64,000 nt of DNA from Thermodesulfobacteriota bacterium (GCA_963675595.2 CAXXLZ010000002.1:2336001-2400000); one strand, 5' to 3'. Positions 8,297-62,720 are shown, numbered from the stretch's first letter. Numbers and translations: made by a program. The notes: a model not told the origin generated them from the sequence alone.

Positions 8297-10429
8297 TCAG
8301 GCGCTTCCTCTTCGTACCAGGAGCATGCGGCTGTCCGCCAGAACGCAACCTTGACCTGCGGGATAAACAATCAAGGGGTTGATGTCCAGTTCCTCAATTT
8401 CAGTTTGTTCCACCATCAGCTGAGACAGACGCAGCAGGCATTCCTGAATCGCCGCCACATCCGACGCCGGCATTCCGCGAACCCCTTTGAGCATTTTGTA
8501 CATCTTGAGGTGCTCGATCATGCGTTCGGCGCTCCTTTCCCACATGGGAGCGAGACGGAAGGTCACGTCTTTGATGATTTCCACGAAAGTCCCACCCAGG
8601 CCCACCATGATCATGGGACCGAATTTCGAGTCCCGATTGGCGCCCAAAATCACCTCGACACCTTTCCGGGCCATCTGTTCCACTCGAATTCCGTTGATTC
8701 TCGCCTCCGGGAATCCACTCTTCACGTTGGATAGGATATCGTGATACGCCTTTTTCGCCTGGGCCTCCGTCTTGATCTTGAGCACTACGCCGCCGGCATC
8801 GAACTTGTGGACCACGTCCGGAGAATCGATCTTCATGGCCACCGGGAACCCCAAGTCGTTGAGGATCTCGCCCAATTGCTCTTCCTTCTTGGCGAGACCG
8901 GCCCGCAGCGTGGGGAAACCGTAGCAGGAAAGCACTTCGTTGGCTTCCGACTGGGGAAGATAGGCCGAGGATTCGGAGCCCAGCTTGCTTATGATCAGCC
9001 GGTTCGCCTTGTCCTTGTCCACGTCGAAAGTCTTGTATTGTCGCCCCGTAAGGTCCATGCGGCCGGTGAAGTAGACCATGCTGGCCAAGGCGTGCACCGC
9101 CTGCTCGGCCAGAAAATAGTTGGGATATCCGTGGCTCTCCAAGTAGCGCACTCCCTCGGATACGTCCACGATGCCCATGAATACGCAGAGGACCGGTTTG
9201 TCAATCCCTTCACAGGCCCGTGGAATAATTTCCGCGGTTTCGAGAATATCCGTGATGGCCTGAGGCGACATGATGACGATGGCGCCGGCAACGTTGGGAT
9301 CGCGAAGCACGGTTCGAATTGCGGCCTCATAACGCTCGTGACCGGCGTCCCCGATGATGTCCACGGGGTTCCGCACGCTCGCCGCGGGGGGGAGCACCGC
9401 CTTCAGATTCTCTTTGGTGGATTCCTCGAGTTCGGCCAGTTCCAGGTTAACACGGTAGGCCGCGTCCACGGCCATGATGCCGGGTCCTCCCGCGTTGGTT
9501 ATGATGGCGAAGCGGTTGCCTTTGGGCAGGGGTTGGCGGGCGAAGGCGATGGCCGCGTCGAACACCTGGCTCAAATTGTCCATGCGTTGAATCCCGCTCT
9601 GGAGGAATATGGCGTCATAAGCCGTATCGGAACCGGCCAAAGCGCCGGTGTGAGACGAAGCCGCCGCGGCTCCTCTGGGGGATCGGCCGGATTTCATCGC
9701 CAGCATGGGTTTCTGGTATCTCCAGTTGATCTCCTGGGCGGTTTCCAAAAAGCGTCGTCCGTCCGTGATATCCTCGAGATACATGACGATCACTTCCGTA
9801 TCGGGGTCGTCCTTCAGGTAGTTGAGCAGATCGATCTCATCCACGTCCGCCTTGTTTCCGAAGGAGATGAATTTGGAAAATCCGATGTTATGGCCGGAGG
9901 CGTAGTCCATGATGGCCGTGCACAATGCGCCGCTCTGCGAAATCACGGCGATCTTCCCCGTCCTGGGCATGATCCGGCTGAAACTGGCATTCATGGCGAT
10001 TTCCGGATTGGTATTGATGATACCCAGGCAGTTGGGACCGATCATGGAAATTCCAAGCTCGGCCACCCGTGCTTTGAGCTTCTTTTCCTGTTCGAGCCCC
10101 TCTCCTCCGACCTCCTTAAACCCGGCGGTGATCACGATGACCCCTTTGACGCCTTTTGCCGCGGCCTCTTCCACCACGCTTTCCACGGCTCCCACCGGAA
10201 CGATGACCACGGCCAGGTCCAACGGGTCCGGGATATCGAGTATGGAAGGATAGGCCCGGATCGCCTGCACGAAGCGCGTCCGGTTGTTCACCGGGTAGAC
10301 GCCGCCGGTGAACCCGCCTTGGATCAGGTTCTGCATCACGGCACGTCCGACGCTCCCCGGACGGTTCGTGGCCCCGATAACGGCCACGGACTGAGGAGAA
10401 AACATGGACTTAAGATGATCCAAACGCAT
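8297..10429 (-). CDS. ADP-forming acetate/acyl-CoA synthetase (fused alpha-beta)
   Basis: CoA-binding VAVIGA, GPNCLG, SQSGA, SHTGALAG phospho-His, ATP-grasp VHKFDAGGV and ELDINPL; no GNAT domain. Confidence 0.88.
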   Translation of the reverse strand: MRLDHLKSMFSPQSVAVIGATNRPGSVGRAVMQNLIQGGFTGGVYPVNNRTRFVQAIRAYPSILDIPDPLDLAVVIVPVGAVESVVEEAAAKGVKGVIVITAGFKEVGGEGLEQEKKLKARVAELGISMIGPNCLGIINTNPEIAMNASFSRIMPRTGKIAVISQSGALCTAIMDYASGHNIGFSKFISFGNKADVDEIDLLNYLKDDPDTEVIVMYLEDITDGRRFLETAQEINWRYQKPMLAMKSGRSPRGAAAASSHTGALAGSDTAYDAIFLQSGIQRMDNLSQVFDAAIAFARQPLPKGNRFAIITNAGGPGIMAVDAAYRVNLELAELEESTKENLKAVLPPAASVRNPVDIIGDAGHERYEAAIRTVLRDPNVAGAIVIMSPQAITDILETAEIIPRACEGIDKPVLCVFMGIVDVSEGVRYLESHGYPNYFLAEQAVHALASMVYFTGRMDLTGRQYKTFDVDKDKANRLIISKLGSESSAYLPQSEANEVLSCYGFPTLRAGLAKKEEQLGEILNDLGFPVAMKIDSPDVVHKFDAGGVVLKIKTEAQAKKAYHDILSNVKSGFPEARINGIRVEQMARKGVEVILGANRDSKFGPMIMVGLGGTFVEIIKDVTFRLAPMWERSAERMIEHLKMYKMLKGVRGMPASDVAAIQECLLRLSQLMVEQTEIEELDINPLIVYPAGQGCVLADSRMLLVRRGSA

Positions 10430-52598: not shown

Positions 52599-54821
52599 TC
52601 AGACGCCGCGGACAACATCACTTTCGGGAAACATGCGCCGGACGGCTCCGAGTTCGCGTTTCGCCTCGGCCAGTCGGGTTTTCAGGTGAGAATACCTTTT
52701 GCGGGTCCTATCGTTGTGAATCGCCATCTCCAAAGCTTTCTTCTGCCCCAGAAGAATCACGAGACGCTTGCCCCGGGTGATCGCGGTGTATACCAGATTT
52801 CTCTGCAGCAGGAGATAATGCTGAACCATCAAAGGGATGATGACCACCGGATACTCGCTGCCCTGGGACTTGTGTACGCTGGTGGCATAAGCCAGGGTAA
52901 TTTCGTCCAGATCCGAGAAATCGTAGGGCAGCACCCGGCCCTCGAATTCCACCAGTACGTTCCGATCCTCCCTGTCCACCGTAACGATCCGACCGATATC
53001 TCCGTTGTAGACTTCCTTATCGTAGTTGTTCCGGAGTTGCATGACCTTGTCACCCTTCCGAAACCCCGTGTCCCCTCGCTGTAGTTCAATGGGGCCCGGG
53101 TTGAGCACTTCCTGCAGCCTCAGGTTCAGGTTCGTCACACCCACAACACCCCGGTTCATGGGTGTCAGCACTTGGACCTGTTCCACGGGATCAAACCCGA
53201 AACGATTTTTAATCCGTTCCGTACAAAGCTCAACGATGGTTTCCAGCAGCTTCTCTTCTTGAGGGCGTTCGAAGAAATAGAAATCCGGCTCCCGGTCATG
53301 AACGTCCGTATGGAGCAAGGGCCACTTGCCCGCATTGATCCTGTGGGCGTTTACCACGATCATGCTTTCTTCGGCTTGTCGAAAAACCTGATCCAAACGA
53401 ATGACGGGCACGGTTTCCGAATCAATGATGTCCTTGAGCACCGTGCCGGGTCCGACCGAAGGCAACTGATCCACGTCCCCGACCAACACCAGCCGAGCAT
53501 CCTGAGGGATGGCCCTGAGTAGACTGTTCATCAGGCCCAGGTCCACCATGGAGACCTCGTCCACCACCAATGCGTCCGTTCTCAACGGATTGTCGTCGTT
53601 TTTCTTGAAAGAGCCTTCGTTGGGACTGAACTCCAGGAGGCGATGAATCGTTTTGGCTTCGTGGTCTGAAGATTGGGCCAGGCGTTTGGCGGCCCTCCCC
53701 GTGGGCGCGGCCAGGAGCACCGTCTTTCCCCGACGTTTGAGTATTTCGATCACTGCTCTGACCAAAGTGGTCTTTCCGGTGCCCGGGCCCCCGGTGATCA
53801 CCGTAACTTTGTGCGTCAGGGCCGTCTCCACCGCTTCTTTCTGTTTGGGCGCCAGATCCAGTCCCAGCCGCCGCCTTACCCAAACGGAAAGATCGTCCCA
53901 CCCGGGGATTTCATAGGTGTCCCCGCAAGCGAGCAATTCCAGCAATCCTTTGGCCACACCCTTTTCCGCCGCCTGAAGCCATTTGAGATAGACAAACTCT
54001 TCCGCCTCGCCCTCAAAGGAATCCCTGGCGACCAAGCCTCGATCCATCAGCCCTCGAACGCCCCTCTCGATGGTTTCCCTTTGTATGGACAGCAACTTCT
54101 CACACCGGTCGAGGAGCCGGTCTTGAGGAAAACACACGTGTCCCTGTTCCGCCAAAGCTTGAAGGACATACATGACACCGGCTTCGGCACGGAGTACGGA
54201 GTCCAAATCGAAGCCCAGGCTCCGCGCCAACCGGTCCGCGGTAAGGAAGCCCACACCTTGCAGGTCCATGGCCAGGCGGTACGGATTGTTCCGGATCACG
54301 TCCAGGGAACGTTTTCCGTACTCTTTGAATATTTTGACCGCCAATGCAGGCCCAAAGCCCATTCCTTGGAGGAACACCATGATTTCACGCACTTCTCGAT
54401 GTTCATTCCAAGATACCCGAATCTGTTCGAGACGCTTGGGACCGATTCCTTCGATCTCACGAAGCCGATCCAAGTCCCGGTCCAGGATTTCCAATGTGTC
54501 TTCGCCGAATTTTGAGACGATGCGTTCCGCCGTTCCGGGACCAATTCCCCGGACCAGGCCCGAACCCAAGTATTTCCGAATTCCATCGGATGACACGGGA
54601 AGAACGCTGCGGAATCGCTGGATCTTGATTTGAGGGCCATATTTAGGATGATTGTGCCATTCGCCGACGATTTCCAGGTGTTCTCCGGGGTCCACGCCCA
54701 CCAGGGGACCCACAACGCTGATCAGGCGGCCGTCGTCGAGAGAAACACGCGCCACCGTCCAACCCGAATCCTCGGCCTGGAAAGTAATCTGCTCCAATAT
54801 CCCCTTCAGTGTTACCGGCAT
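52599..54821 (-). CDS. recD2: ATP-dependent RecD2 helicase
   Basis: N-terminal HhH GIGP repeats; GGPGTGKT, APTGRAA, DEVSM, GDVDQLPSVG, HKSQGSE. Confidence 0.93.
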   Translation of the reverse strand: MPVTLKGILEQITFQAEDSGWTVARVSLDDGRLISVVGPLVGVDPGEHLEIVGEWHNHPKYGPQIKIQRFRSVLPVSSDGIRKYLGSGLVRGIGPGTAERIVSKFGEDTLEILDRDLDRLREIEGIGPKRLEQIRVSWNEHREVREIMVFLQGMGFGPALAVKIFKEYGKRSLDVIRNNPYRLAMDLQGVGFLTADRLARSLGFDLDSVLRAEAGVMYVLQALAEQGHVCFPQDRLLDRCEKLLSIQRETIERGVRGLMDRGLVARDSFEGEAEEFVYLKWLQAAEKGVAKGLLELLACGDTYEIPGWDDLSVWVRRRLGLDLAPKQKEAVETALTHKVTVITGGPGTGKTTLVRAVIEILKRRGKTVLLAAPTGRAAKRLAQSSDHEAKTIHRLLEFSPNEGSFKKNDDNPLRTDALVVDEVSMVDLGLMNSLLRAIPQDARLVLVGDVDQLPSVGPGTVLKDIIDSETVPVIRLDQVFRQAEESMIVVNAHRINAGKWPLLHTDVHDREPDFYFFERPQEEKLLETIVELCTERIKNRFGFDPVEQVQVLTPMNRGVVGVTNLNLRLQEVLNPGPIELQRGDTGFRKGDKVMQLRNNYDKEVYNGDIGRIVTVDREDRNVLVEFEGRVLPYDFSDLDEITLAYATSVHKSQGSEYPVVIIPLMVQHYLLLQRNLVYTAITRGKRLVILLGQKKALEMAIHNDRTRKRYSHLKTRLAEAKRELGAVRRMFPESDVVRGV

Positions 54822-55182
54822 GAAAAGCACTATATATAACCCGGGGTCCGGGATACAACGGAATAGTCGCCCGGAGCGACATCAAACGTCGGCACATACG
54901 CGGTCTTTCTTCGGTCGCCGCTTGATATTCGAGGGATAAATCCCTATGGTTGCACAGTTCGGTCATCATTGGCATAGGTTCTTGCGTTTTCGAAATCGGC
55001 TGTGCCCGCAGCTTTCTTCGGGTCTCACGTGACGCGCGTCCTATATGAGGTCCGAACGTTATTATTCGGAGAGTGATCCTTCGGCGCCGTTCGAGGCGGG
55101 ACTCGGTCGGGTCGCAGCTTCGAAGAATCAAAAACGCCGTTCCGCACCATCGACACGCTTAGGAAACCCCGAGGTGGAGCCC

Positions 55183-56037
55183 ATGACTGAAGCAGCCGAC
55201 CGTCGCTCGGCCGAAACCCTCGCCGTCCCTCCCCGTGTGGTGTCCGTTGTCTTCGCAGCCGGCAAGGGAACAAGAATGACCGGGTACGACGGCAACAAGA
55301 CCTTGCTGCCCTTATTACCCACTGATTCGCCTTTCCAGGGGGCGCGCCCCCTCCTTCACGAAGTGCTGTCCAATCTTCCTTCGGGCCCCAAGATTCTTGT
55401 GGTAAATCACCGAAAAGAAGACGTCATTTCAGCCACCGAGGAATTCGAGGTTTCCTGTGCCGAGCAGCCCGTAACCAACGGAACCGGGGGCGCTTTATTG
55501 GCGGCCCGGCCTTTGCTCATGGACGCCGTGGAGTCCGTGGTGCTTATCACCATGGGAGACGTGCCCCTCGTGCGCCGGAAAACCTACGAAGACCTCGTCG
55601 ACATGGCGCGTTACGCGCCTCTGGTGGTATTGGGGTTTCGTCCTTCGGAGCCGGCGCGTTACGGAGCCGTGGAAATGTCGGAAGAACGAGTTCGGCGAAT
55701 TACGGAATGGGCCTACTGGAAGGACTACTCCCCGGAGAAACGAGCCGGGCTCACGATTTTCAATTCCGGTATTTACGCGGCACAGAGAGATGTCCTTCTG
55801 GAAATGCTCCCCAAGCTCGAAAGGAATCCACATGTCGTCCACAAAGAACGGAACGGGCGCGTGGAACCCATCGAGGAGTTTTTCATTACGGATCTGGTGG
55901 AATTGATGGTCGCCGAGGGCATGTCCCCGAATTGTGTGGTCTGCGCCGATGAACGGGAAGTAATGGGCGTGGATACTCCGGAGGCTTTGAGGAGAGTTCA
56001 AGAAATCTACCGAAAACATTGGGCCGACTCCGCTTGA
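55183..56037 (+). CDS. NTP transferase (GlmU N-terminal-like), no acetyltransferase domain
   Basis: AAGKGTRM...K, Q...GTGGA, GDVPL, NSGIY, EFFITD. Confidence 0.8.
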   Translation: MTEAADRRSAETLAVPPRVVSVVFAAGKGTRMTGYDGNKTLLPLLPTDSPFQGARPLLHEVLSNLPSGPKILVVNHRKEDVISATEEFEVSCAEQPVTNGTGGALLAARPLLMDAVESVVLITMGDVPLVRRKTYEDLVDMARYAPLVVLGFRPSEPARYGAVEMSEERVRRITEWAYWKDYSPEKRAGLTIFNSGIYAAQRDVLLEMLPKLERNPHVVHKERNGRVEPIEEFFITDLVELMVAEGMSPNCVVCADEREVMGVDTPEALRRVQEIYRKHWADSA

Positions 56038-56159: not shown

Positions 56160-58004
56160 ATGGAAAAAGACGACCTGCATCGAACTCTGACGATTCAACA
56201 TGCCGGGGAGCTTTGCATCGGATTCCTTTCCCGAACGGCGCCCACTGAATTGGAGGGGTTCGAGAAATGCTTCGCCCAGATTGTGGAAAAATCGGACTGG
56301 GAGTACCCCGAGGAATCTCTGGTCCGAAGAAGTTTCGCCGGATATGCCTCCTTTGGATGCGCGAACGCCCCGTGGGGCGTCTTCGAAATCAAAGCGCAAC
56401 CCGACGCGCCCCGTACCATCCGCGGTAAACAATACCAGATTCTCGTGGCCGGCCTTTTCCTGGACTTCCTACGTTCCACGAAAAGGTCCCGATTCGAACA
56501 GGTTAAGGAAGAGTTCGAGGAACTCCTGGACTCGCTGATCAGAGCCTACTACGGATCCACATCCAACATCACCGGAGAAGACCTCAATCTGCTCCGAGAA
56601 GAGCTGAACCGCATCGGCCTGAATTATTTTCAGGTGTCCGGACATGTGAGGGAAGGTCATGTCCGGACCGAGACTCACCTGTCCGAATTCGAGGAACTCG
56701 CTCTCATTTGGGGAAGAGGCCCCATGATGGAAAAACGAATCGAAGAACTTCGGCGTCTCGCCCGGTCCCCCATGCCCATTCTTCTCACCGGAGAGACCGG
56801 TACGGGAAAGACCTTCTTAGCCGGTTTGATCCATAAGCTCAGTCCTCGGGCGGAGCGCCCCTGCTTGACGATCAACTGCGCCGCCATCCCCTCCAATCTG
56901 TTGCAGAGTGAACTATTCGGATATCGACGCGGCGCCTTTACCGGAGCGGTGCACGACAAGATGGGACTCCTCAAGAGCGCTGAAGGCGGGACCGTCTTGC
57001 TGGACGAAATCGGCGACTTGTCCAAGGAGGACCAAGTCAAGCTGCTGCAGGTATTGGAGGAGGGCAGAATATTGCCTTTGGGAAGCCTTAAAGAGACCAA
57101 GGTCGACGTTCGCTTTCTGGCGGGAACCAATCGCCCTTTGGAAGAAGACGTAAGAGAAGGACGATTCCGCAGCGACCTGTACTTCAGGCTCAAAGGAGCC
57201 CATTTTCATTTGCCCCCCTTGCGGGAACGTATGGAAGTCTTCGACGAATTGGTGCTGAGAATACTCCGACGCACGCTTCCGGACGAGAATTCTCCGCCCC
57301 GGCTCGCTTCACCGGAGGCCATGGAACTTCTGCGACTCCATTCATGGCCGGGCAACGTTCGGGAATTGGACAATGTGCTTCGGCGAGCTGCGGCTTTGGC
57401 GACGGGCGGCACCATCCGTCCACAACACTTACCCGACGAATTGTTGCCCGATCGATTCGTTCCTTTCCGGGGAGAATCCACTCGACGCCGGCTGTTGGCG
57501 CTCACATTGGCGGGGCTGGGACTGAACGATCCGTATCTAGGCAATCTCCTCTACGAAACATCGGGCATGAGTTTCACCGTCAATGATCTCTTGGTTCGCC
57601 ATCCGGCACTGGCGGCCGCAGGCGAAACGATCCGCCGTGAAAGCGTCTTGCGTAAGGCCCGGCGTCTCCTCGCGCCCTGCAAAGGTCCGATTCTCGAAGA
57701 GAACGGGCGTAGAGGTCCCGCGGTCCGTCTGCGTCTAAAACCGGCATTTCTGGAGGAGAACGACCGGCGACTGTTCCAAGCCGTGGACTCGGCGGTCCGC
57801 CGGGTGGGAGCTCCCAAACGCACCGCCTTCGCCCTGTACGACGCACTCAAAGCACATGCAGGCGAAGACACGCCCCTGGCGGTTCCCGCCGCGATGGCGG
57901 GACTTCGCCTTGCTGAATTCCTGGGCCTGATTCGTTTGATTGAGGAACAGGGGCAGGCGAAGGTTGAAGGAGACATGGTTCGTATTGAAACAACATCGTG
58001 TTGA
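56160..58004 (+). CDS. Sigma54-interaction AAA+ regulator with unrecognised N- and C-terminal domains
   Basis: GETGTGKT, ELFG...GAFTGA, LLDEIGD, FRSDLYFRL, WPGNVREL; no canonical Fis HTH. Confidence 0.85.
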   Translation: MEKDDLHRTLTIQHAGELCIGFLSRTAPTELEGFEKCFAQIVEKSDWEYPEESLVRRSFAGYASFGCANAPWGVFEIKAQPDAPRTIRGKQYQILVAGLFLDFLRSTKRSRFEQVKEEFEELLDSLIRAYYGSTSNITGEDLNLLREELNRIGLNYFQVSGHVREGHVRTETHLSEFEELALIWGRGPMMEKRIEELRRLARSPMPILLTGETGTGKTFLAGLIHKLSPRAERPCLTINCAAIPSNLLQSELFGYRRGAFTGAVHDKMGLLKSAEGGTVLLDEIGDLSKEDQVKLLQVLEEGRILPLGSLKETKVDVRFLAGTNRPLEEDVREGRFRSDLYFRLKGAHFHLPPLRERMEVFDELVLRILRRTLPDENSPPRLASPEAMELLRLHSWPGNVRELDNVLRRAAALATGGTIRPQHLPDELLPDRFVPFRGESTRRRLLALTLAGLGLNDPYLGNLLYETSGMSFTVNDLLVRHPALAAAGETIRRESVLRKARRLLAPCKGPILEENGRRGPAVRLRLKPAFLEENDRRLFQAVDSAVRRVGAPKRTAFALYDALKAHAGEDTPLAVPAAMAGLRLAEFLGLIRLIEEQGQAKVEGDMVRIETTSC

Positions 58005-58106
58005 AATGATCTTGTTGGGATACTATGAAACAGACGTTCGGAACGTCCAAGCTGCGACGTCGCGCACAAAGATCGTCATCCCCATGGAGGACGAGAAGCC
58101 GGAATC

Positions 58107-59807
58107 ATGAACGGACGTAATATCAGGAACATGGGGGCTCAGACGGGCCGATATCTTTCTTGGATAGGCGCACTGCTGGTCCTTGTTCTGGTACTCCTGC
58201 CGGCCTTGTTTCCGCCGGAAAGACGTCCCTCGCCCGTGGGAAGCGCCCCAAGAGCGGGAGGAGAGCTCAGGATCGACCTTCCCATTCCTCTGGGAGAATT
58301 CGATCTGCACTCTAAGTCGGGTAACGGAGCCTCCTTCGCTCTCCAAATGATGGTCAACATGCTTTGCCGTCTCGGGCCCGACGGTTCACCGCAGCCCGAA
58401 CTCGCCAAGTCCTGGACAATGACCCAACAAGGCCGAAAGTGGGAATTCATTCTCCATTCCCATGTCCGTTTCCACGACGGCACTTTCATGACTCCCAGGG
58501 ACGTCATCTATTCCCTGGAAACTCAATTTCGAAACGTGATTCCCCAGTTTCTGCGCATCGCCCGGTTTCGCGAAGATTCTCATCCGGATCGGGTGCTCGT
58601 GGAACTGGACCACCCGGTTCCCAACTTTCTGTCGTATCTTGCCTACGTCCCCATCTTCCCGTCCGGATCCTTCTCAAATCCACGCTGGTTCTCACATCCT
58701 GTGGGCACCGGTCCCTTTCGATTCCAGAGTCGCGACGGCCGGCGGGTGATCGTCCTCTCCTCCTTTCAGGATTATTTTGAAGGACGTCCCTGGCTCGATC
58801 GGCTGGTGCTGCGCCACCCCGGAGGTGAAGCGGAACTCCCTTGGAGGCTGTTGGAAGAAAAGACGGACTTGGTGCTGGAAATGAACCCCTGCTATGATTC
58901 CCTGCTGAAGACGGCCGATCACCTCCTTCACGTCGAGTCCGGCCCTCAGCATGTTCATTTCGTAATTCTGTTCAACACGAGCAAGCCTCCCCTAAACGAT
59001 GCCCGCATCCGAAACGCCCTGGCCATGGGCATTCAAACAAACGGTTTGAGCCCGAATCTTTTGCCCGACAAACAGAATCCGATGTTCGTTCCCTTGTCGA
59101 ATCAAAGATTCCAGCGCGCCGTGGAACTTCTGTCGGAGGCCGGTTGGAGAGACCACGACGGAGACGGCTACCTGGACAGAAACGGACAACGATTCGAGTT
59201 CTCCATCCTGGTGCCGGAAGAATATGCGCCCGAATACGACACCGTTTTGCGGGTCATGGCCCAGTGGAAACGCTTGGGAATCAGAGCCGACTGGCATGGG
59301 GGAAGCTACGCGAATCACTATGAAACGCGTCTCAATCCGGGCGATTTTCAAGCGACCTTATTCTATTTCCGACTCATGCCCGACGAGCCCGAATTTCTAT
59401 ATAATTTATGGCACCATAGCGGAATATGGAACTTCAGTCGTTATCACGACGAGGAAGCGGATCGCATTATCGAGGCCGCCATGACGGAAAGCGATCCTCA
59501 CCGGCGGCGGGACCTCTATGCCGGACTGAAGAAGGTCCTGGATCGGGACCATCCTTTCATTTACCTGGGGAGCAAACAGGTGAGCTGTTCCCTGTCCAAC
59601 TATTTTCAGGGCATGGAAGAAATTTACGGCCAAGGCCGATTCTCAAGAAGGTTTCACAAAGTCCGCCTGCTGGATGGAGCGCGCCCGGGCTCGCACCAGT
59701 TGACCGCCTACGCCCGGTCGCAGCCCCGAGCATTCTGGCAGACCTGGTTTCATCCGCTGGACCGGGTGGTCCGGACACTCTTTCCCATCGAGGACGATCA
59801 GAAGTAA
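58107..59807 (+). CDS. Orphan family 5 (Opp/Dpp-type) peptide-binding protein
   Basis: PELAKSW, VRFHDG...T..DV.YS, PVGTGPF, NFSRY; N-terminal hydrophobic segment; alternative start 58131. Confidence 0.82.
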   Translation: MNGRNIRNMGAQTGRYLSWIGALLVLVLVLLPALFPPERRPSPVGSAPRAGGELRIDLPIPLGEFDLHSKSGNGASFALQMMVNMLCRLGPDGSPQPELAKSWTMTQQGRKWEFILHSHVRFHDGTFMTPRDVIYSLETQFRNVIPQFLRIARFREDSHPDRVLVELDHPVPNFLSYLAYVPIFPSGSFSNPRWFSHPVGTGPFRFQSRDGRRVIVLSSFQDYFEGRPWLDRLVLRHPGGEAELPWRLLEEKTDLVLEMNPCYDSLLKTADHLLHVESGPQHVHFVILFNTSKPPLNDARIRNALAMGIQTNGLSPNLLPDKQNPMFVPLSNQRFQRAVELLSEAGWRDHDGDGYLDRNGQRFEFSILVPEEYAPEYDTVLRVMAQWKRLGIRADWHGGSYANHYETRLNPGDFQATLFYFRLMPDEPEFLYNLWHHSGIWNFSRYHDEEADRIIEAAMTESDPHRRRDLYAGLKKVLDRDHPFIYLGSKQVSCSLSNYFQGMEEIYGQGRFSRRFHKVRLLDGARPGSHQLTAYARSQPRAFWQTWFHPLDRVVRTLFPIEDDQK

Positions 59808-59932
59808 CCTGCTGAAATCCCGACACTTCCTGCGAAAAAACCACTCCAATTCCCTGCCGAACACCTCTGCACGCTTCTTGCCTCTCCTTGCGACGACGCG
59901 CGTTCAAATCCAACACACAAGGAGAAACCGCA

Positions 59933-60019
59933 ATGCACGTAACGATTCGTTTGGCAACGTACGATTTCCGCTCGGCGCAACAGCTCTGCTGCTATATCGG
60001 CCCGCAAATTCTGACCTAA
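59933..60019 (+). CDS. Putative RiPP precursor peptide, 28 aa: MHVTIRLATYDFRSAQQLCCYIGPQILT
   Basis: Strong RBS AAGGAG 8 nt before ATG; Cys-Cys motif; directly upstream of a radical SAM/SPASM gene. Confidence 0.75.
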   Translation: MHVTIRLATYDFRSAQQLCCYIGPQILT

Positions 60020-60056
60020 GAAACCGATCAAGCCCGCCGGCCGGCTGATTTCATTC

Positions 60057-60086
60057 AGGGGTCTCCGGACCCCTTTTTACCTTTTT
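60057..60086 (+). terminator. Terminator-like hairpin between precursor and maturase
   Basis: AGGGGTC-TCCG-GACCCCT (UNCG tetraloop) followed by TTTTACCTTTTT. Confidence 0.65.
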
Positions 60087-60099
60087 CTCGGGGAATTCC

Positions 60100-61455
60100 A
60101 TGCATACGATCAACCCTGTTCCCTCCAGGTATTTGGTGGAACACGAAACAGCTTGGGACGGGACGCCTTGGACGGTCCTGTTCCATTCCCTGAACCGGGG
60201 TCTCAAAATCCTGGAGCCCTCAATATGGCGGGACTTCCAATCCGGAAGAATGGATGGGAGGCATCGGCCGCTGTTCCAGGAACTGTGCGAAATGGGATTT
60301 CTGGTGTCGCCCTCGCTGGACGAAACCAGATTGCTCTCCAATTGGCGTTACAGCCGATTCCTGGATACCCGCTCCATGACGTTCAAAATCCAGGTGACGG
60401 AAGCCTGCAACCTGCGATGCGTATTCTGCATTCAGGAGGGCATGAAGGGGCCGGTTCACATGTCCGACGAAACCTCTCGCCGGTGTGCCGCGCTCATCGA
60501 AGAACTCATTGAAAGCAGGCGCCCGGACTCCATCAAGATCATGATCACCGGAGGCGAACCACTGCTCAACTTTGAAAGCATCCAAACGCTTGGGGCTCTG
60601 GTTCATTTCTGCAGGGGCCGAGGAGTCGACGTTGAATTCAGCCTGACCACCAACGGGGTGCTTCTGGATCGTTCCACGGCGAGAAATCTCAGCCGTTTGG
60701 GCATGCATACGGTCCGCGTCTCTCTGTTCGGTCCGCCCGATCTTCATGATCGACACCGGGTGTTCGAAGGCGGCCGAGGGTCCTACGATCTCATCGAGCG
60801 CAACCTCGTTGAAGCATCGGAGTTTCTGACTTTCCGTCCCGCGATCCAGTACGACGAGGACACCTCCGACTACCTCCGATATCCCGAGCTCTTTGATCGT
60901 CTGCTGGACGTCGGACTGGGCGGTTCGGTGCATGACATGGAATTCGGTGCTTTGCTTCCCCGCGAACTGGATTTCGACCGACGCGCCCGGCCGGATTGTT
61001 CAGGCCCGAGCCGTCCCGACATCTACTTCTTCCTGGAACAAGAGGCTCGGAAACGGGGATTCCGTGAATTGGGACCGCCGCCTTCCGTGGGATGCCTCGC
61101 CAACCGGCGAGGTTCCCTGGTCATCGACGTCAACGGCAACCTGATAAGCTGTCCGGGAGTTTCCCACGAATGGCACCCGGAGCTCACGTATGGGAACGTG
61201 TACCGAGGCGTGGATTTCACCGCGGAATCCCAGATCATCGCCCCGCCGTTGCCGGACGGCTGCGGTGAATGCTCCCTGGCCGGCCTGTGCGACGGCGGTT
61301 GTCGCCAACAAGCACTGGTCGGAAGCGGAACCTTTCACGGTGTATTCTGCAGCAAGGAATATCTCGAGTCCGTCATACGGCAATACATGGAAGACACGGT
61401 GATCGGGTATCTCAAAGAAAACGCGCCCCGATTCAACAATGCCCAAGCGGCATGA
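60100..61455 (+). CDS. Radical SAM/SPASM peptide maturase, resembling geopeptide-type maturases
   Basis: N-terminal RRE-like region, CNLRCVFC, GGEPLL, TTNG, SPASM C...C...CGECSLAGLCDGGC...C. Confidence 0.88.
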   Translation: MHTINPVPSRYLVEHETAWDGTPWTVLFHSLNRGLKILEPSIWRDFQSGRMDGRHRPLFQELCEMGFLVSPSLDETRLLSNWRYSRFLDTRSMTFKIQVTEACNLRCVFCIQEGMKGPVHMSDETSRRCAALIEELIESRRPDSIKIMITGGEPLLNFESIQTLGALVHFCRGRGVDVEFSLTTNGVLLDRSTARNLSRLGMHTVRVSLFGPPDLHDRHRVFEGGRGSYDLIERNLVEASEFLTFRPAIQYDEDTSDYLRYPELFDRLLDVGLGGSVHDMEFGALLPRELDFDRRARPDCSGPSRPDIYFFLEQEARKRGFRELGPPPSVGCLANRRGSLVIDVNGNLISCPGVSHEWHPELTYGNVYRGVDFTAESQIIAPPLPDGCGECSLAGLCDGGCRQQALVGSGTFHGVFCSKEYLESVIRQYMEDTVIGYLKENAPRFNNAQAA

Positions 61456-62720
61456 ACCGGCATCTCCGAATCCTGGCCGGGGCGGACTTTCTCTCCGTTT
61501 CGGCCGGACAACTATTGGGGTTGGCTCTTTGTGAGCTCCTGGTTTTAGGCAGACACCAGGGCGAGAGGAATCTGCTCTTCCTCTTGGCGGCCGCTCAGAC
61601 ACCGGCTTTTTTGCTCTCCTTCGTATCGGGCGGACTACTGGATCGGTCCAACCCTGCGCGCATCCTTTTCGTCTGTGGGGCGGCCAAGGCCCTGCCCGCG
61701 CTTCTTCTCTCCCTCGTTCCCGGCTCCCATGTGGTTGTGTTCCTCATCTACGCCTTCCACTCCGCGGCGGACCTGCTTCATATTTCGGCCAGGAGCACTT
61801 TGGTGCCCTTTCTCTTCCCTCCCGAAGACATCATGCATGCCAATGCGTTTCGGCAAAAAGCGGCTTTGACCGGCGGCATCTTGGGGCCCATCTGCATGGG
61901 CTGGATCGTGTCGCAGGCAGGACCCGTCAAGGCACTCATTTTGTGCGCCTTTCTTTGCTTCATTTCCGGAGTGCCGGGAGTCCTTCTGATGAAACCCTCG
62001 GAGATGTCACGACGACGACTCGTCCGGGAATCTCCGCCTCCGTCCGCCACGGCGCGAAACCTGCCGGTTCTCCAATGGCTTCTCCTTCTGTTCATGTCCG
62101 CCGGGGCGGGCGGGCTGTTCCAGTACGCGTCGCCTCTTTGGATCGACGGCCGATCCTGGGGAAATGCCGCAGCCTTGGGCGCCGTATTCTCGCTGTTCAA
62201 CGCCGGCTCCTTCGCAGGAGCAATCCTGGTTTCCAGAATGGGATGTATGTCGAGAGTCCCGATGCTCAGATTGGGCATGATTTCGGAAGGCGCCGGGATC
62301 CTCGCTTTGGCCGCACCTCTCTGCTCCCTCCCGCCGTTTCTTGGTATTTTCATGTTCTTGGGAGTCACCTCTGTTTCTCGTCATATCCTTATCGAGAGTC
62401 GGATCCAGGCGTTGGCCCCGCCGATGTTCATGGGACGAACCATGTCCGCAGCGTACGGCCTGAGAGCTCTGGCAACGGTCTCCGGGGCGGGATTGGGTTT
62501 TCTGGTGTTCTCCCGTTTCGGCATCAACGCCCTGCTTCTGGCCTGCGGATTTTTTCTGTTCCTCGGCGCTCTGTGCAATCCGCCGTCCCCGGCTTCGTTG
62601 AAAGAAGGATTCAAGCCTTTCAGCCGCGCACCCCTCCGCCGCGGGGCTGCAGTTTCGCCTCCCATCCCGGCCGAACAAAAGGCTCCGTCTTGCAAGGAAC
62701 GCCCGAATCTGTCAGACTAA
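61452..62720 (+). CDS. MFS transporter (macrolide/peptide exporter-like)
   Basis: ATGA overlap with the maturase stop; GGLLDR motif A; about 12 TM; IQ...P..MGR. Confidence 0.8.
   Translation: MNRHLRILAGADFLSVSAGQLLGLALCELLVLGRHQGERNLLFLLAAAQTPAFLLSFVSGGLLDRSNPARILFVCGAAKALPALLLSLVPGSHVVVFLIYAFHSAADLLHISARSTLVPFLFPPEDIMHANAFRQKAALTGGILGPICMGWIVSQAGPVKALILCAFLCFISGVPGVLLMKPSEMSRRRLVRESPPPSATARNLPVLQWLLLLFMSAGAGGLFQYASPLWIDGRSWGNAAALGAVFSLFNAGSFAGAILVSRMGCMSRVPMLRLGMISEGAGILALAAPLCSLPPFLGIFMFLGVTSVSRHILIESRIQALAPPMFMGRTMSAAYGLRALATVSGAGLGFLVFSRFGINALLLACGFFLFLGALCNPPSPASLKEGFKPFSRAPLRRGAAVSPPIPAEQKAPSCKERPNLSD

Follow-up and report, generated by a model that had tools for sequence, protein, structure and literature searches.

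Five genes in a 64,000-nt stretch of a Thermodesulfobacteriota bacterium genome (GCA_963675595.2, CAXXLZ010000002.1:2336001-2400000; the whole stretch is called the window, and the genome G000) appear to encode a system by which a RiPP (a peptide that the ribosome synthesizes and that is modified after translation) is made, exported, re-captured and sensed. Such a production-and-perception loop, a divergent sister of the geopeptide systems that have been defined computationally, is the reading that we favour, with moderate confidence, from gene content and comparison among genomes. The genes lie on the same strand at 56160-62720 and specify, in order, a receiver-less sigma-54 bacterial enhancer-binding protein (bEBP; the activator), a family-5 solute-binding protein (SBP5), a short Cys-Cys precursor peptide, a radical SAM/SPASM-type maturase and a major facilitator superfamily (MFS) transporter. 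Open reading frame (ORF) calls and Pfam and NCBIfam scans, by which the genes of the window were assessed, confirmed all five co-oriented genes listed in the initial annotation of the stretch. Likely further parts, absent from that annotation, are the products of genes at another place in the same genome, namely a TonB receptor, a histidine kinase and a sigma-54 response regulator.

The precursor, a 28-residue peptide with the sequence MHVTIRLATYDFRSAQQLCCYIGPQILT, is supported by conservation as a real gene beyond a chance ORF and as the partner of the maturase. It was found by tblastn in the related genomes G001 (E 5e-5) and G002 (E 7e-5), and in an alignment of eight such peptides M1, C19, C20 and P24 were invariant, which gives the motif Cys-Cys-x-x-x-Pro, most commonly in the form CC-x-x-G-P. 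A homologous Cys-Cys peptide precedes the maturase at eight of the nine close loci (those termed non-B below), and the proposed pairing of peptide and enzyme is thereby supported. The AAGGAG ribosome-binding site sits 8 nt 5' of the precursor ATG. A six-frame scan of the whole genome (6.8 Mb) for CC-x(1-4)-GP near an ORF end returned a single convincing peptide, the window's own; further paralogous Cys-Cys peptides in G000 were considered and dropped, the remaining motif matches looking like off-frame noise. Against NCBIfam the precursor gave zero matches, the geopeptide family TIGR04229 included, even at E values up to 10.

The maturase belongs to the radical SAM proteins (PF04055, 59.9 bits against a cut-off of 29.5), and its CxxxCxxC motif at C103/C107/C110 was invariant across seven maturase sequences, the alignment of which also revealed conserved C-terminal cysteines at C332, C351, C388, C391, C397, C401 and C417. 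It aligns full-length to SPASM maturase families; the Pfam SPASM domain itself was not listed at E<=0.01. The best NCBIfam family was the geopeptide maturase TIGR04280, at positions 16-422 of 428. The resemblance to geopeptide maturases suggested earlier was therefore right as a lead, with a score (196.6 bits) that falls far under the family cut-off of 400. TIGR04463 and the PapB, CefB and QhpD types came next, and mycofactocin-type and PQQ (pyrroloquinoline quinone)-type maturases and QhpD were among the weaker relatives; the best solved relatives were ChlB (9gm3) and CteB (5wgg). With the thioether-forming SPASM maturases (PapB of the ranthipeptides, CteB/SCIFF, CefB and QhpD) the enzyme shares the CxxxCxxC motif, a region with many cysteines at the C-terminus, an extension N-terminal to the core and short Cys-rich substrates encoded alongside, whereas it scores below the cut-off of each of these families. 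To our knowledge, two adjacent Cys followed by x-x-x-Pro are not the substrate motif of the PapB, CteB/SCIFF, CefB or QhpD families. Our best guess by analogy is that the cross-link would be a thioether, because PapB, CefB, QhpD and SCIFF-type enzymes are the next-best families and CteB is among the closest solved structures.

The presence of QhpD, mycofactocin and PQQ-type maturases among the weaker relatives also suits another explanation, in which the peptide is an unreleased redox cofactor or prosthetic peptide inside the envelope, similar to PQQ, mycofactocin or the gamma subunit of quinohemoprotein amine dehydrogenase. The cluster encodes no protease, and disulfide oxidoreductase genes occur near 5 of 29 loci of the wider family (L055, L060, L062, L068 and L083), both of which fit that explanation. 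However, the maturase is coupled to a dedicated exporter, Pfam and NCBIfam scans disclosed no partner dehydrogenase in the cluster, and the association of the family with TonB receptors argues for an extracellular phase; we therefore consider a prosthetic peptide highly improbable.

The transporter (PF07690, 65.6 bits against a cut-off of 33.4, plus a weak MFS_3 match) is presumed to be an exporter translationally coupled to the maturase, since its start overlaps the maturase stop in the ATGA at 61452-61455, exactly as had been described. MFS orthologues directly follow the maturase in G001, G002 and G014, and the 4-base overlap recurs in G001.

Among 41 related genomes, six besides the window genome contained a full-length maturase homologue at E<=1e-60, with identities to the window enzyme of 52% (G001), 50% (G002), 37% (G014), 32% (G003), 33% (G040) and 32% (G030). 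The loci were compared by tblastn and Pfam over 19-kb stretches. G001 and G002 keep the order of the window, namely nucleotidyltransferase, activator, SBP5, peptide, maturase and MFS, and G014 has activator, SBP5, peptide, maturase and MFS, then an integrase. In G003 the order is kinase, sigma-54 response regulator, activator, SBP5, peptide and maturase, and a divergent TonB-dependent receptor occupies the place of the MFS gene. At the G040 locus, peptide and maturase are accompanied only by a gene for an outer-membrane barrel and, after the maturase, one for an ArsR-type regulator, and on the 4-kb contig that makes up the G030 locus the peptide was not found. Binding protein and activator thus co-occur with the maturase in the window, G001, G002, G014 and G003, as the system proposed in the initial annotation would lead one to expect, and the linkage is kept in five genomes of three families with unlike outer flanks. 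On the points open to computation, none of the three refuting conditions named in that annotation went against its reading.

Two of these loci have features of their own. In G014 (L015 11944-15344), genes for a phage-type integrase and a ParB-fused DNA methylase come after the cluster, a hint that it can be mobile. The receiver-type regulator of G003 (L016 13725-15182) reads FGFTENGSANE where GAFTGA is expected and may therefore be unable to contact sigma-54 alone; it is encoded in tandem with the receiver-less activator, which retains GAFTGA.

Many radical SAM thioether peptides, the sactipeptides, are antibacterial, and the window peptide might likewise be a bacteriocin-like antimicrobial, with the MFS as exporter or immunity pump and with SBP and activator controlling or protecting production. 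The coupling of exporter to maturase and the integrase adjoining the G014 cluster are compatible with that possibility. On the other hand, neither immunity nor protease genes were found in the cluster, the peptide is single-copy in the genome, and the family-wide link to an own TonB receptor, an orphan SBP and a kinase fits self-perception or uptake better than killing. An antimicrobial function accordingly seems to us improbable.

SBP5 matches PF00496 with 162.3 bits against a cut-off of 32.4, and its best solved relative is AppA (1xoc, E 1.1e-23), followed by peptide and nickel/metallophore binders. Its N-terminus consists of a hydrophobic helix and then PALFPPE, without a lipobox cysteine, a feature kept in G001 and G002; more distant cluster-linked SBPs bear a lipobox-like L-x-x-C. 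Because each has such an N-terminal anchor or lipobox-like motif, the cluster-linked SBPs appear to be membrane-tethered in the periplasm. The protein had been called an orphan Opp-type binding protein, and this stands: its neighbours are the bEBP and the peptide gene, with no ABC (ATP-binding cassette) permease or ATPase gene adjoining, the rest of the genome not having been searched for orphan permeases. G000 holds three other family-5 paralogues with 25-27% identity to SBP5. In a 17-row SBP tree, the SBPs adjoining non-B maturases group at support 98, apart from the G000 paralogues, and those of two other maturase subclades form groups of their own, matching the maturase tree. The SBPs thus diversify in parallel with the maturases, and this, together with linkage in varied gene orders, is the strongest evidence that the SBP is a member of the system.

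The same data bear on whether peptide, maturase and MFS alone might be the functional unit, with activator and SBP serving another task such as peptide or nickel sensing. The weak sigma-54 site and the presence in G040 and G325 of peptide and maturase with neither activator nor SBP nearby would suit such a three-gene unit. Against it stand the linkage across three families with unlike outer flanks, the SBP phylogeny that mirrors that of the maturases, the linkage of SBPs in different gene orders in other subclades, and an activator N-domain found nowhere else (three strong matches among 1.84 billion representatives). We give this explanation very little credence.

The sigma-54 AAA+ core of the activator (PF00158, 201.7 bits, plus AAA_lid_14), with Walker A GETGTGKT and GAFTGA in the translation, places it among the bacterial enhancer-binding proteins. 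Neither a receiver (PF00072) nor HTH_8 (PF02954) was found in it by Pfam, so that it is not an NtrC-type regulator. The protein comprises an N-terminal domain (~1-185), the AAA+ core and a non-Fis C-terminal region (~430-614). The orthologues in G001, G002, G003 and G014 (L013-L016) share with it ~185 residues before and ~185 after the core, the G014 protein being N-terminally shorter. Its core scores highly to those of NifA, NorR, PspF and RtcR, with the same GAFTGA; in contrast to these, it reaches no family cut-off, its N- and C-terminal regions lack Pfam or PDB matches above threshold, and HTH_8 is absent. A profile of the N-domain run against 1.84 billion representatives had three matches at E<=1e-30, namely the activator of the window, that of G003 and one like that of G001, and then two weak ones, and a word-index search retrieved only the protein itself. 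Since strong matches to the N-domain are confined to such clusters, the activator is regarded as specific to this cluster type. Profile searches of the N and C parts gave no significant PDB sequence match (best E 0.9 and 0.022) and Pfam gave none for the window protein, and one orthologue showed sub-threshold MarR/winged-helix Pfam hints in its C-terminal part.

A bolder proposal is that the receiver-less activator represents a new sigma-54 sensor type that reads the state of the peptide system directly and couples the SBP to sigma-54 without a kinase, the peptide being a private autoinducer or metallophore re-imported by a co-evolving TonB receptor. The activator might, for instance, bind the peptide before its export or after its re-import, or else contact the anchored SBP at its cytoplasmic tail. 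We think this decidedly unlikely; if true, it would amount to a quorum-sensing-like peptide circuit in anaerobic diderm relatives of sulfate reducers and the vicinal Cys-Cys motif would undergo a kind of chemistry so far unobserved on it.

The best intergenic sigma-54-like site, CTGCACGCTTCTTGCC, lies 66 nt before the precursor ATG and agrees with the consensus at 9 of 12 positions, and comparable sites occur at -66 to -77 in five relatives (L013-L017). TGG...TTGA elements at canonical spacing precede the peptide gene in G014 and G040, and rpoN is present in the G000 genome. Because the site is imperfect and no better intergenic GG..GC site was found elsewhere in the cluster, it is no more than plausible that the activator controls the peptide operon. 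In L013 (~9440-9455) and L014 (~9055-9070) the spacing is GG-N8-GC as against the canonical GG-N10-GC, an unusual arrangement for a sigma-54 promoter. The window, G001 and G002 share a CG-rich near-palindrome located between the sigma-54-like site and the ribosome-binding site, which may serve as an operator or as an element of the 5' untranslated region, or may be due to chance among relatives.

Downstream of the precursor, the spacer contains a GC-rich hairpin of 7 bp followed by a T run, so that both signals previously ascribed to the precursor gene, an own ribosome-binding site and a downstream hairpin, are present. A stable stem-loop occupies the same position in four of five relatives folded (z -2.3 to -2.9; L013-L016). 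The hairpin is probably a partial terminator or attenuator.

A profile built from seven maturases was used to survey the wider family: of 401 genomes taken from across the phylum, 44 contain a homologue at E<=1e-45, and geopeptide-type systems are thus widespread in this phylum. A scan of public contigs with one narrow pattern yielded four loci, in Thermodesulfobacteriota, Desulfarculia and 'delta proteobacterium' metagenome-assembled genomes. At 38 further maturase loci, a candidate Cys-Cys or single-Cys peptide adjoins the enzyme in 32, and none was found in six. Most family peptides end in a C-terminal Cys-Cys and have a leader such as EIIVLDEG or MKIIKKG. In one SBP5-linked subclade, four candidates encoded 3' of the maturase show just one Cys and then x-W, as in ...RCVWVISH; not all family members therefore have the Cys-Cys pair. 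In the large clade, two maturases (L063 7971-10151 and L073 5019-7100) reach ~700 residues, with a C-terminal extension of ~270-290 residues without a Pfam match.

Neighbours were tallied by Pfam scans of ORFs within 4.5 kb of the maturase at 29 loci (L055-L083); L084-L093 and L052 were left out (L052 and L090 being short contigs), and most of these entered the tblastn survey. TonB-dependent receptors were present at 23 of the 29, orphan periplasmic binding proteins (SBP_bac_5 or PF04392) at 20, histidine kinases, often dCache/HAMP and adjoining the binding protein, likewise at 20, and receiver-type sigma-54 response regulators at three, counts to be read with the fact that several loci without a given neighbour end at a contig edge. 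Binding-protein-dependent two-component sensing is known from LuxP-LuxQ and TorT-TorS, which many family loci resemble in pairing an orphan SBP with a periplasmic dCache/HAMP kinase; in the window, by contrast, the SBP adjoins a cytoplasmic bEBP and the candidate kinase is unlinked.

In a quick maximum-likelihood tree of 45 maturase rows, with SH-like approximate likelihood ratio test (SH-aLRT) values as the sole support measure, 35 rows were split from the other ten at support 100. The ten are the window, G001, G002, G003, G014, G040, G030, G256, G325 and L089, of which the last is a long branch whose place is unreliable; the remaining nine are termed non-B. TIGR04280 was the best family for all 30 maturases tested, with 190-238 bits for the nine non-B rows, 249-313 for six SBP5-linked rows of the large clade and 420-654 for the other 15. 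All 15 rows above the cut-off fall within the 35-row clade, and the window maturase lies outside. The TIGR04229 cut-off of 30 bits was reached by none of 28 family peptides (best 19.6). The operational hallmark of geopeptide systems, a C-terminal Cys-Cys peptide directly beside the maturase, is present in the window at 59933-60019. A TonB receptor adjoining the pair is absent there, all 12 Plug-domain matches in G000 lying outside C2:2336001-2400000. Because maturase and peptide miss the curated thresholds, the window system is best described as the nearest geopeptide relative yet a non-member.

As a receptor and a kinase are usual in the family, G000 was searched with those of the relatives. 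At C2:2597296-2602621, ~200 kb from the cluster, it encodes a sigma-54 response regulator of REC-AAA-HTH_8 architecture, a HAMP kinase and a divergently transcribed TonB receptor. The receptor is 40% identical to the one abutting the G003 maturase, and regulator and kinase are 33% and 27% identical, full-length, to those beside the G003 cluster; the regulator-kinase-receptor module also occurs in G001 and G002 (41-62% identity). Among the 41 relatives, the receptor type (E<=1e-50) was present in six, comprising all five genomes with activator, SBP, peptide and maturase together with G004 (71% complete, no maturase found), and searches of G040, G030 and the remaining 33 did not reveal it. Across the phylum sample, seven of 401 genomes carry it (E<=1e-60), and all seven belong to the 44 maturase-positive ones. 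Three matches, with E values near 1e-125 or lower, come from G000, G256 and G325, exactly the non-B maturase genomes of the sample, and in G256 and G325 the receptor is on contigs other than that of the maturase; three of the remaining four matches adjoin a maturase in one SBP5-linked subclade. The circumstantial case that the distant module serves the same system is strong, and it is not statistical proof because related genomes are non-independent samples. The receptor is BtuB/Cir-sized, which is uninformative on cargo, and a sigma-54 promoter looked for before its gene was not found.

Next to the distant receptor lies the gene, ending at 2605392, for a 921-residue protein that looks secreted, contains repeated G-N-D-x-Y motifs and lacks a Pfam match (whole locus, this gene included: G000 C2:2597296-2605392, L094 4297-12392). 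G001 retains the gene behind its receptor (38% identity); in G002 it gave no match. An M48 peptidase beside the receptor was considered as a leader protease and dropped, as it is not conserved in G001 or G002.

For the operation of the favoured loop, we infer the biochemical steps and the signalling or metal role as follows. The precursor would be translated from its own strong ribosome-binding site, and the hairpin would let only part of the transcripts continue into the maturase and exporter genes, so that the peptide would be in excess over the enzymes. The maturase would recognise the N-terminal half of the peptide and, using the radical SAM cluster at C103/C107/C110 and auxiliary clusters on the seven C-terminal cysteines, would cross-link the invariant Cys-Cys-x-x-x-Pro core, most probably via one or two thioether bonds. 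The coupled MFS would carry the product across the inner membrane, and the tethered SBP5 would capture it in the periplasm, either directly or after its return via the distant TonB receptor. SBP occupancy may then reach sigma-54 transcription through the receiver-less activator encoded beside the SBP gene, and the kinase and response regulator beside the unlinked receptor would be a probable second sigma-54 route.

Several observations tell against this loop. The hairpin alone is not above chance: shuffled sequence would give 9.9 terminator-like sites over the 8 kb in which 9 occur, and the fold of the spacer between peptide and maturase (80 nt) is no better than that of shuffles (z = -0.63). 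The sigma-54-like site has TG replacing GG, an equal score is reached by 13 of 200 shuffled versions of the 200 nt upstream, and the TGGCA/TTGCA elements of G001 and G002 are 2 nt too close. Residues 1-97 of the maturase have no Pfam match at E<=1, and a RiPP recognition element was not detected by Pfam. A leader protease is not encoded in the cluster according to Pfam and NCBIfam scans, which agrees with the initial annotation. Family-5 binding proteins normally supply ABC importers, one of which may be encoded elsewhere, and the window cluster contains no kinase that could relay the state of the periplasmic SBP to the cytoplasmic activator. The link to the distant locus is one of homology and co-occurrence among related, non-independent genomes, and the quick tree, which has SH-aLRT support only, leaves the non-B rows as an unresolved grade and does not establish them as a clade.

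Because the layout resembles the methanobactin machinery, a metal-carrier role is the main rival to signalling: the Cys-rich peptide would bind metal outside the cell and return via the TonB receptor to SBP5, and regulation would report metal status. According to PMC7558416, the methanobactin precursor is ribosomal, an efflux pump lies in the inner membrane, MbnT is the TonB-dependent importer, MbnE is a periplasmic protein of OppA/AppA type, and no dedicated inner-membrane importer is known. The likeness to methanobactin (MbnA, MbnB/C, MbnM, MbnT, MbnE) covers a Cys precursor, a pump, a TonB re-importer and an OppA-like SBP without a cognate permease. The frequency of TonB receptors at the family loci, the nickel/metallophore binders among the closest solved SBP relatives, the ArsR-family gene after the G040 maturase, and NosL and a CxxCxxCC-domain gene near two other loci point the same way. 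However, the metal-related neighbours are few and scattered, the thiols would be consumed if the maturase forms thioethers, and some family peptides have a single Cys. Pfam and NCBIfam scans of the cluster genes showed only families other than MbnB/MbnC and no other metal-related gene, MbnE was not among the best 60 of 67 solved matches to SBP5, and the BtuB/Cir-like receptor is uninformative. The window system also differs from methanobactin in that maturation would be by a radical SAM/SPASM enzyme and not by MbnBC, regulation would be by sigma-54 and a bEBP, and the SBP is not specifically MbnE-like. Methanobactin genes are under an ECF (extracytoplasmic function)-type regulator. We judge a metallophore system unlikely, and the signalling and metal-carrier roles are not mutually exclusive.

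The production-and-perception loop is thus best placed beside the geopeptide system (TIGR04229 precursor plus TIGR04280 maturase), which is itself computationally defined. The two share the best family over nearly the full length of the maturase, a short C-terminal Cys-Cys peptide encoded directly before it, with a hydrophobic leader motif in the family, and recurring accessory types, namely TonB receptor, orphan binding protein, kinase and sigma-54 regulators. They differ in that the window maturase scores 196.6 against 400 and lies outside the 35-row clade, the peptide has no TIGR04229 match, the regulator, a bEBP, lacks a receiver and possesses a unique N-domain, the SBP is signal-anchored and not lipobox-bearing, the MFS is coupled to the maturase, and receptor, kinase and response regulator are encoded 200 kb off. 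In a search of 5.8 billion protein clusters, nine proteins matched the maturase at E<=1e-40, of which only two, the window's own aside, were at least 50% identical; the window maturase type is rare.

The general kind is therefore already known, as a database-defined geopeptide-type radical SAM RiPP with receptor and sensor genes. No paper on 'geopeptide', TIGR04280 or the family was found in open-access full text (supplements and subscription journals being outside that scope). The earlier word 'undescribed' is nevertheless too strong, because the wider family is already defined in databases. What the window holds is, from these comparisons, a rare and divergent variant of the in-silico geopeptide systems, given its sub-cut-off maturase and peptide, unique receiver-less activator, anchored SBP, and receptor, kinase and regulator at a second locus. 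In this branch the usual wiring of receptor, kinase and regulator appears rearranged, and the trio that moved away still tracks the system phylogenetically. The peptide gains candidate partners in an exporter, an outer-membrane importer, an SBP and two sigma-54 regulators, and the compact core operon of peptide, enzyme and pump suits heterologous expression. If true, whether as signal or as metal carrier, the system would be a new class of peptide-mediated behaviour in anaerobic Thermodesulfobacteriota.

Table 1. Features of the cluster and its flanks in the window, with the distant receptor and the single-Cys candidates of other loci
Feature	Position	Strand	Evidence or remark
RecD2 helicase, left flank	52599-54830	-	TIGR01448, 893 bits
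MobA/GlmU-N-like nucleotidyltransferase	55183..56037	+	PF12804, E 3.6e-12
Sigma-54 enhancer-binding protein (bEBP), receiver-less	56160..58004	+	PF00158, E 8.7e-60
Family-5 (Opp/Dpp/Nik-type) solute-binding protein (SBP5)	58107..59807	+	PF00496, E 2.3e-47
Candidate sigma-54 (-24/-12) promoter, CTGCACGCTTCTTGCC	59867..59882	+	9/12 consensus positions
CG-rich near-palindrome	59890-59909		ACGCGCGT, ACGCGCGC or CACGCGTG, then AA-T
AAGGAG ribosome-binding site of precursor gene	59919..59924	+	direct sequence reading
28-aa Cys-Cys precursor peptide, MHVTIRLATYDFRSAQQLCCYIGPQILT	59933..60019	+	ORF (ATG at 59933), conserved peptide
GC-rich hairpin and T run, precursor/maturase spacer	60057..60084	+	7-pair stem at 60057-60074
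Radical SAM/SPASM-type maturase	60100..61455	+	PF04055, E 4.5e-16
MFS transporter	61452..62720	+	PF07690, E 4.8e-18
Pyruvate kinase (pyk), right flank	from 62796		Pfam, NCBIfam
Distant TonB receptor	G000 C2:2600687-2602621		divergent to kinase/regulator
Single-Cys candidate precursors	L060 7780-7860, L080 7622-7696, L087 9623-9697, L066 just downstream of 5433

The content of GC is even along the cluster, and an Rfam scan of the window matched zero families. Pfam and NCBIfam scans found no ABC permease or kinase genes inside the cluster. The cluster had been described as inserted between a nucleotidyltransferase and pyk; this is the wrong description, because the nucleotidyltransferase travels with the cluster in G001 and G002, whereas RecD2, an ordinary helicase unconnected with the cluster, and pyk do not. 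The nucleotidyltransferase ORF opens at 55045, and the start in Table 1 is inferred from where homologues begin aligning. Its orthologues (56-61% identity) lie directly 5' of the bEBP in G001 and G002 despite differing outer flanks, and none was found beside the G014 or G003 clusters by tblastn and Pfam of the loci. It is a conserved left neighbour whose membership in the system is uncertain. The gene adjoins the activator in three genomes with otherwise unlike flanks, a linkage that may reflect family-level synteny or a sixth system gene, for example one for nucleotidylation of the peptide.

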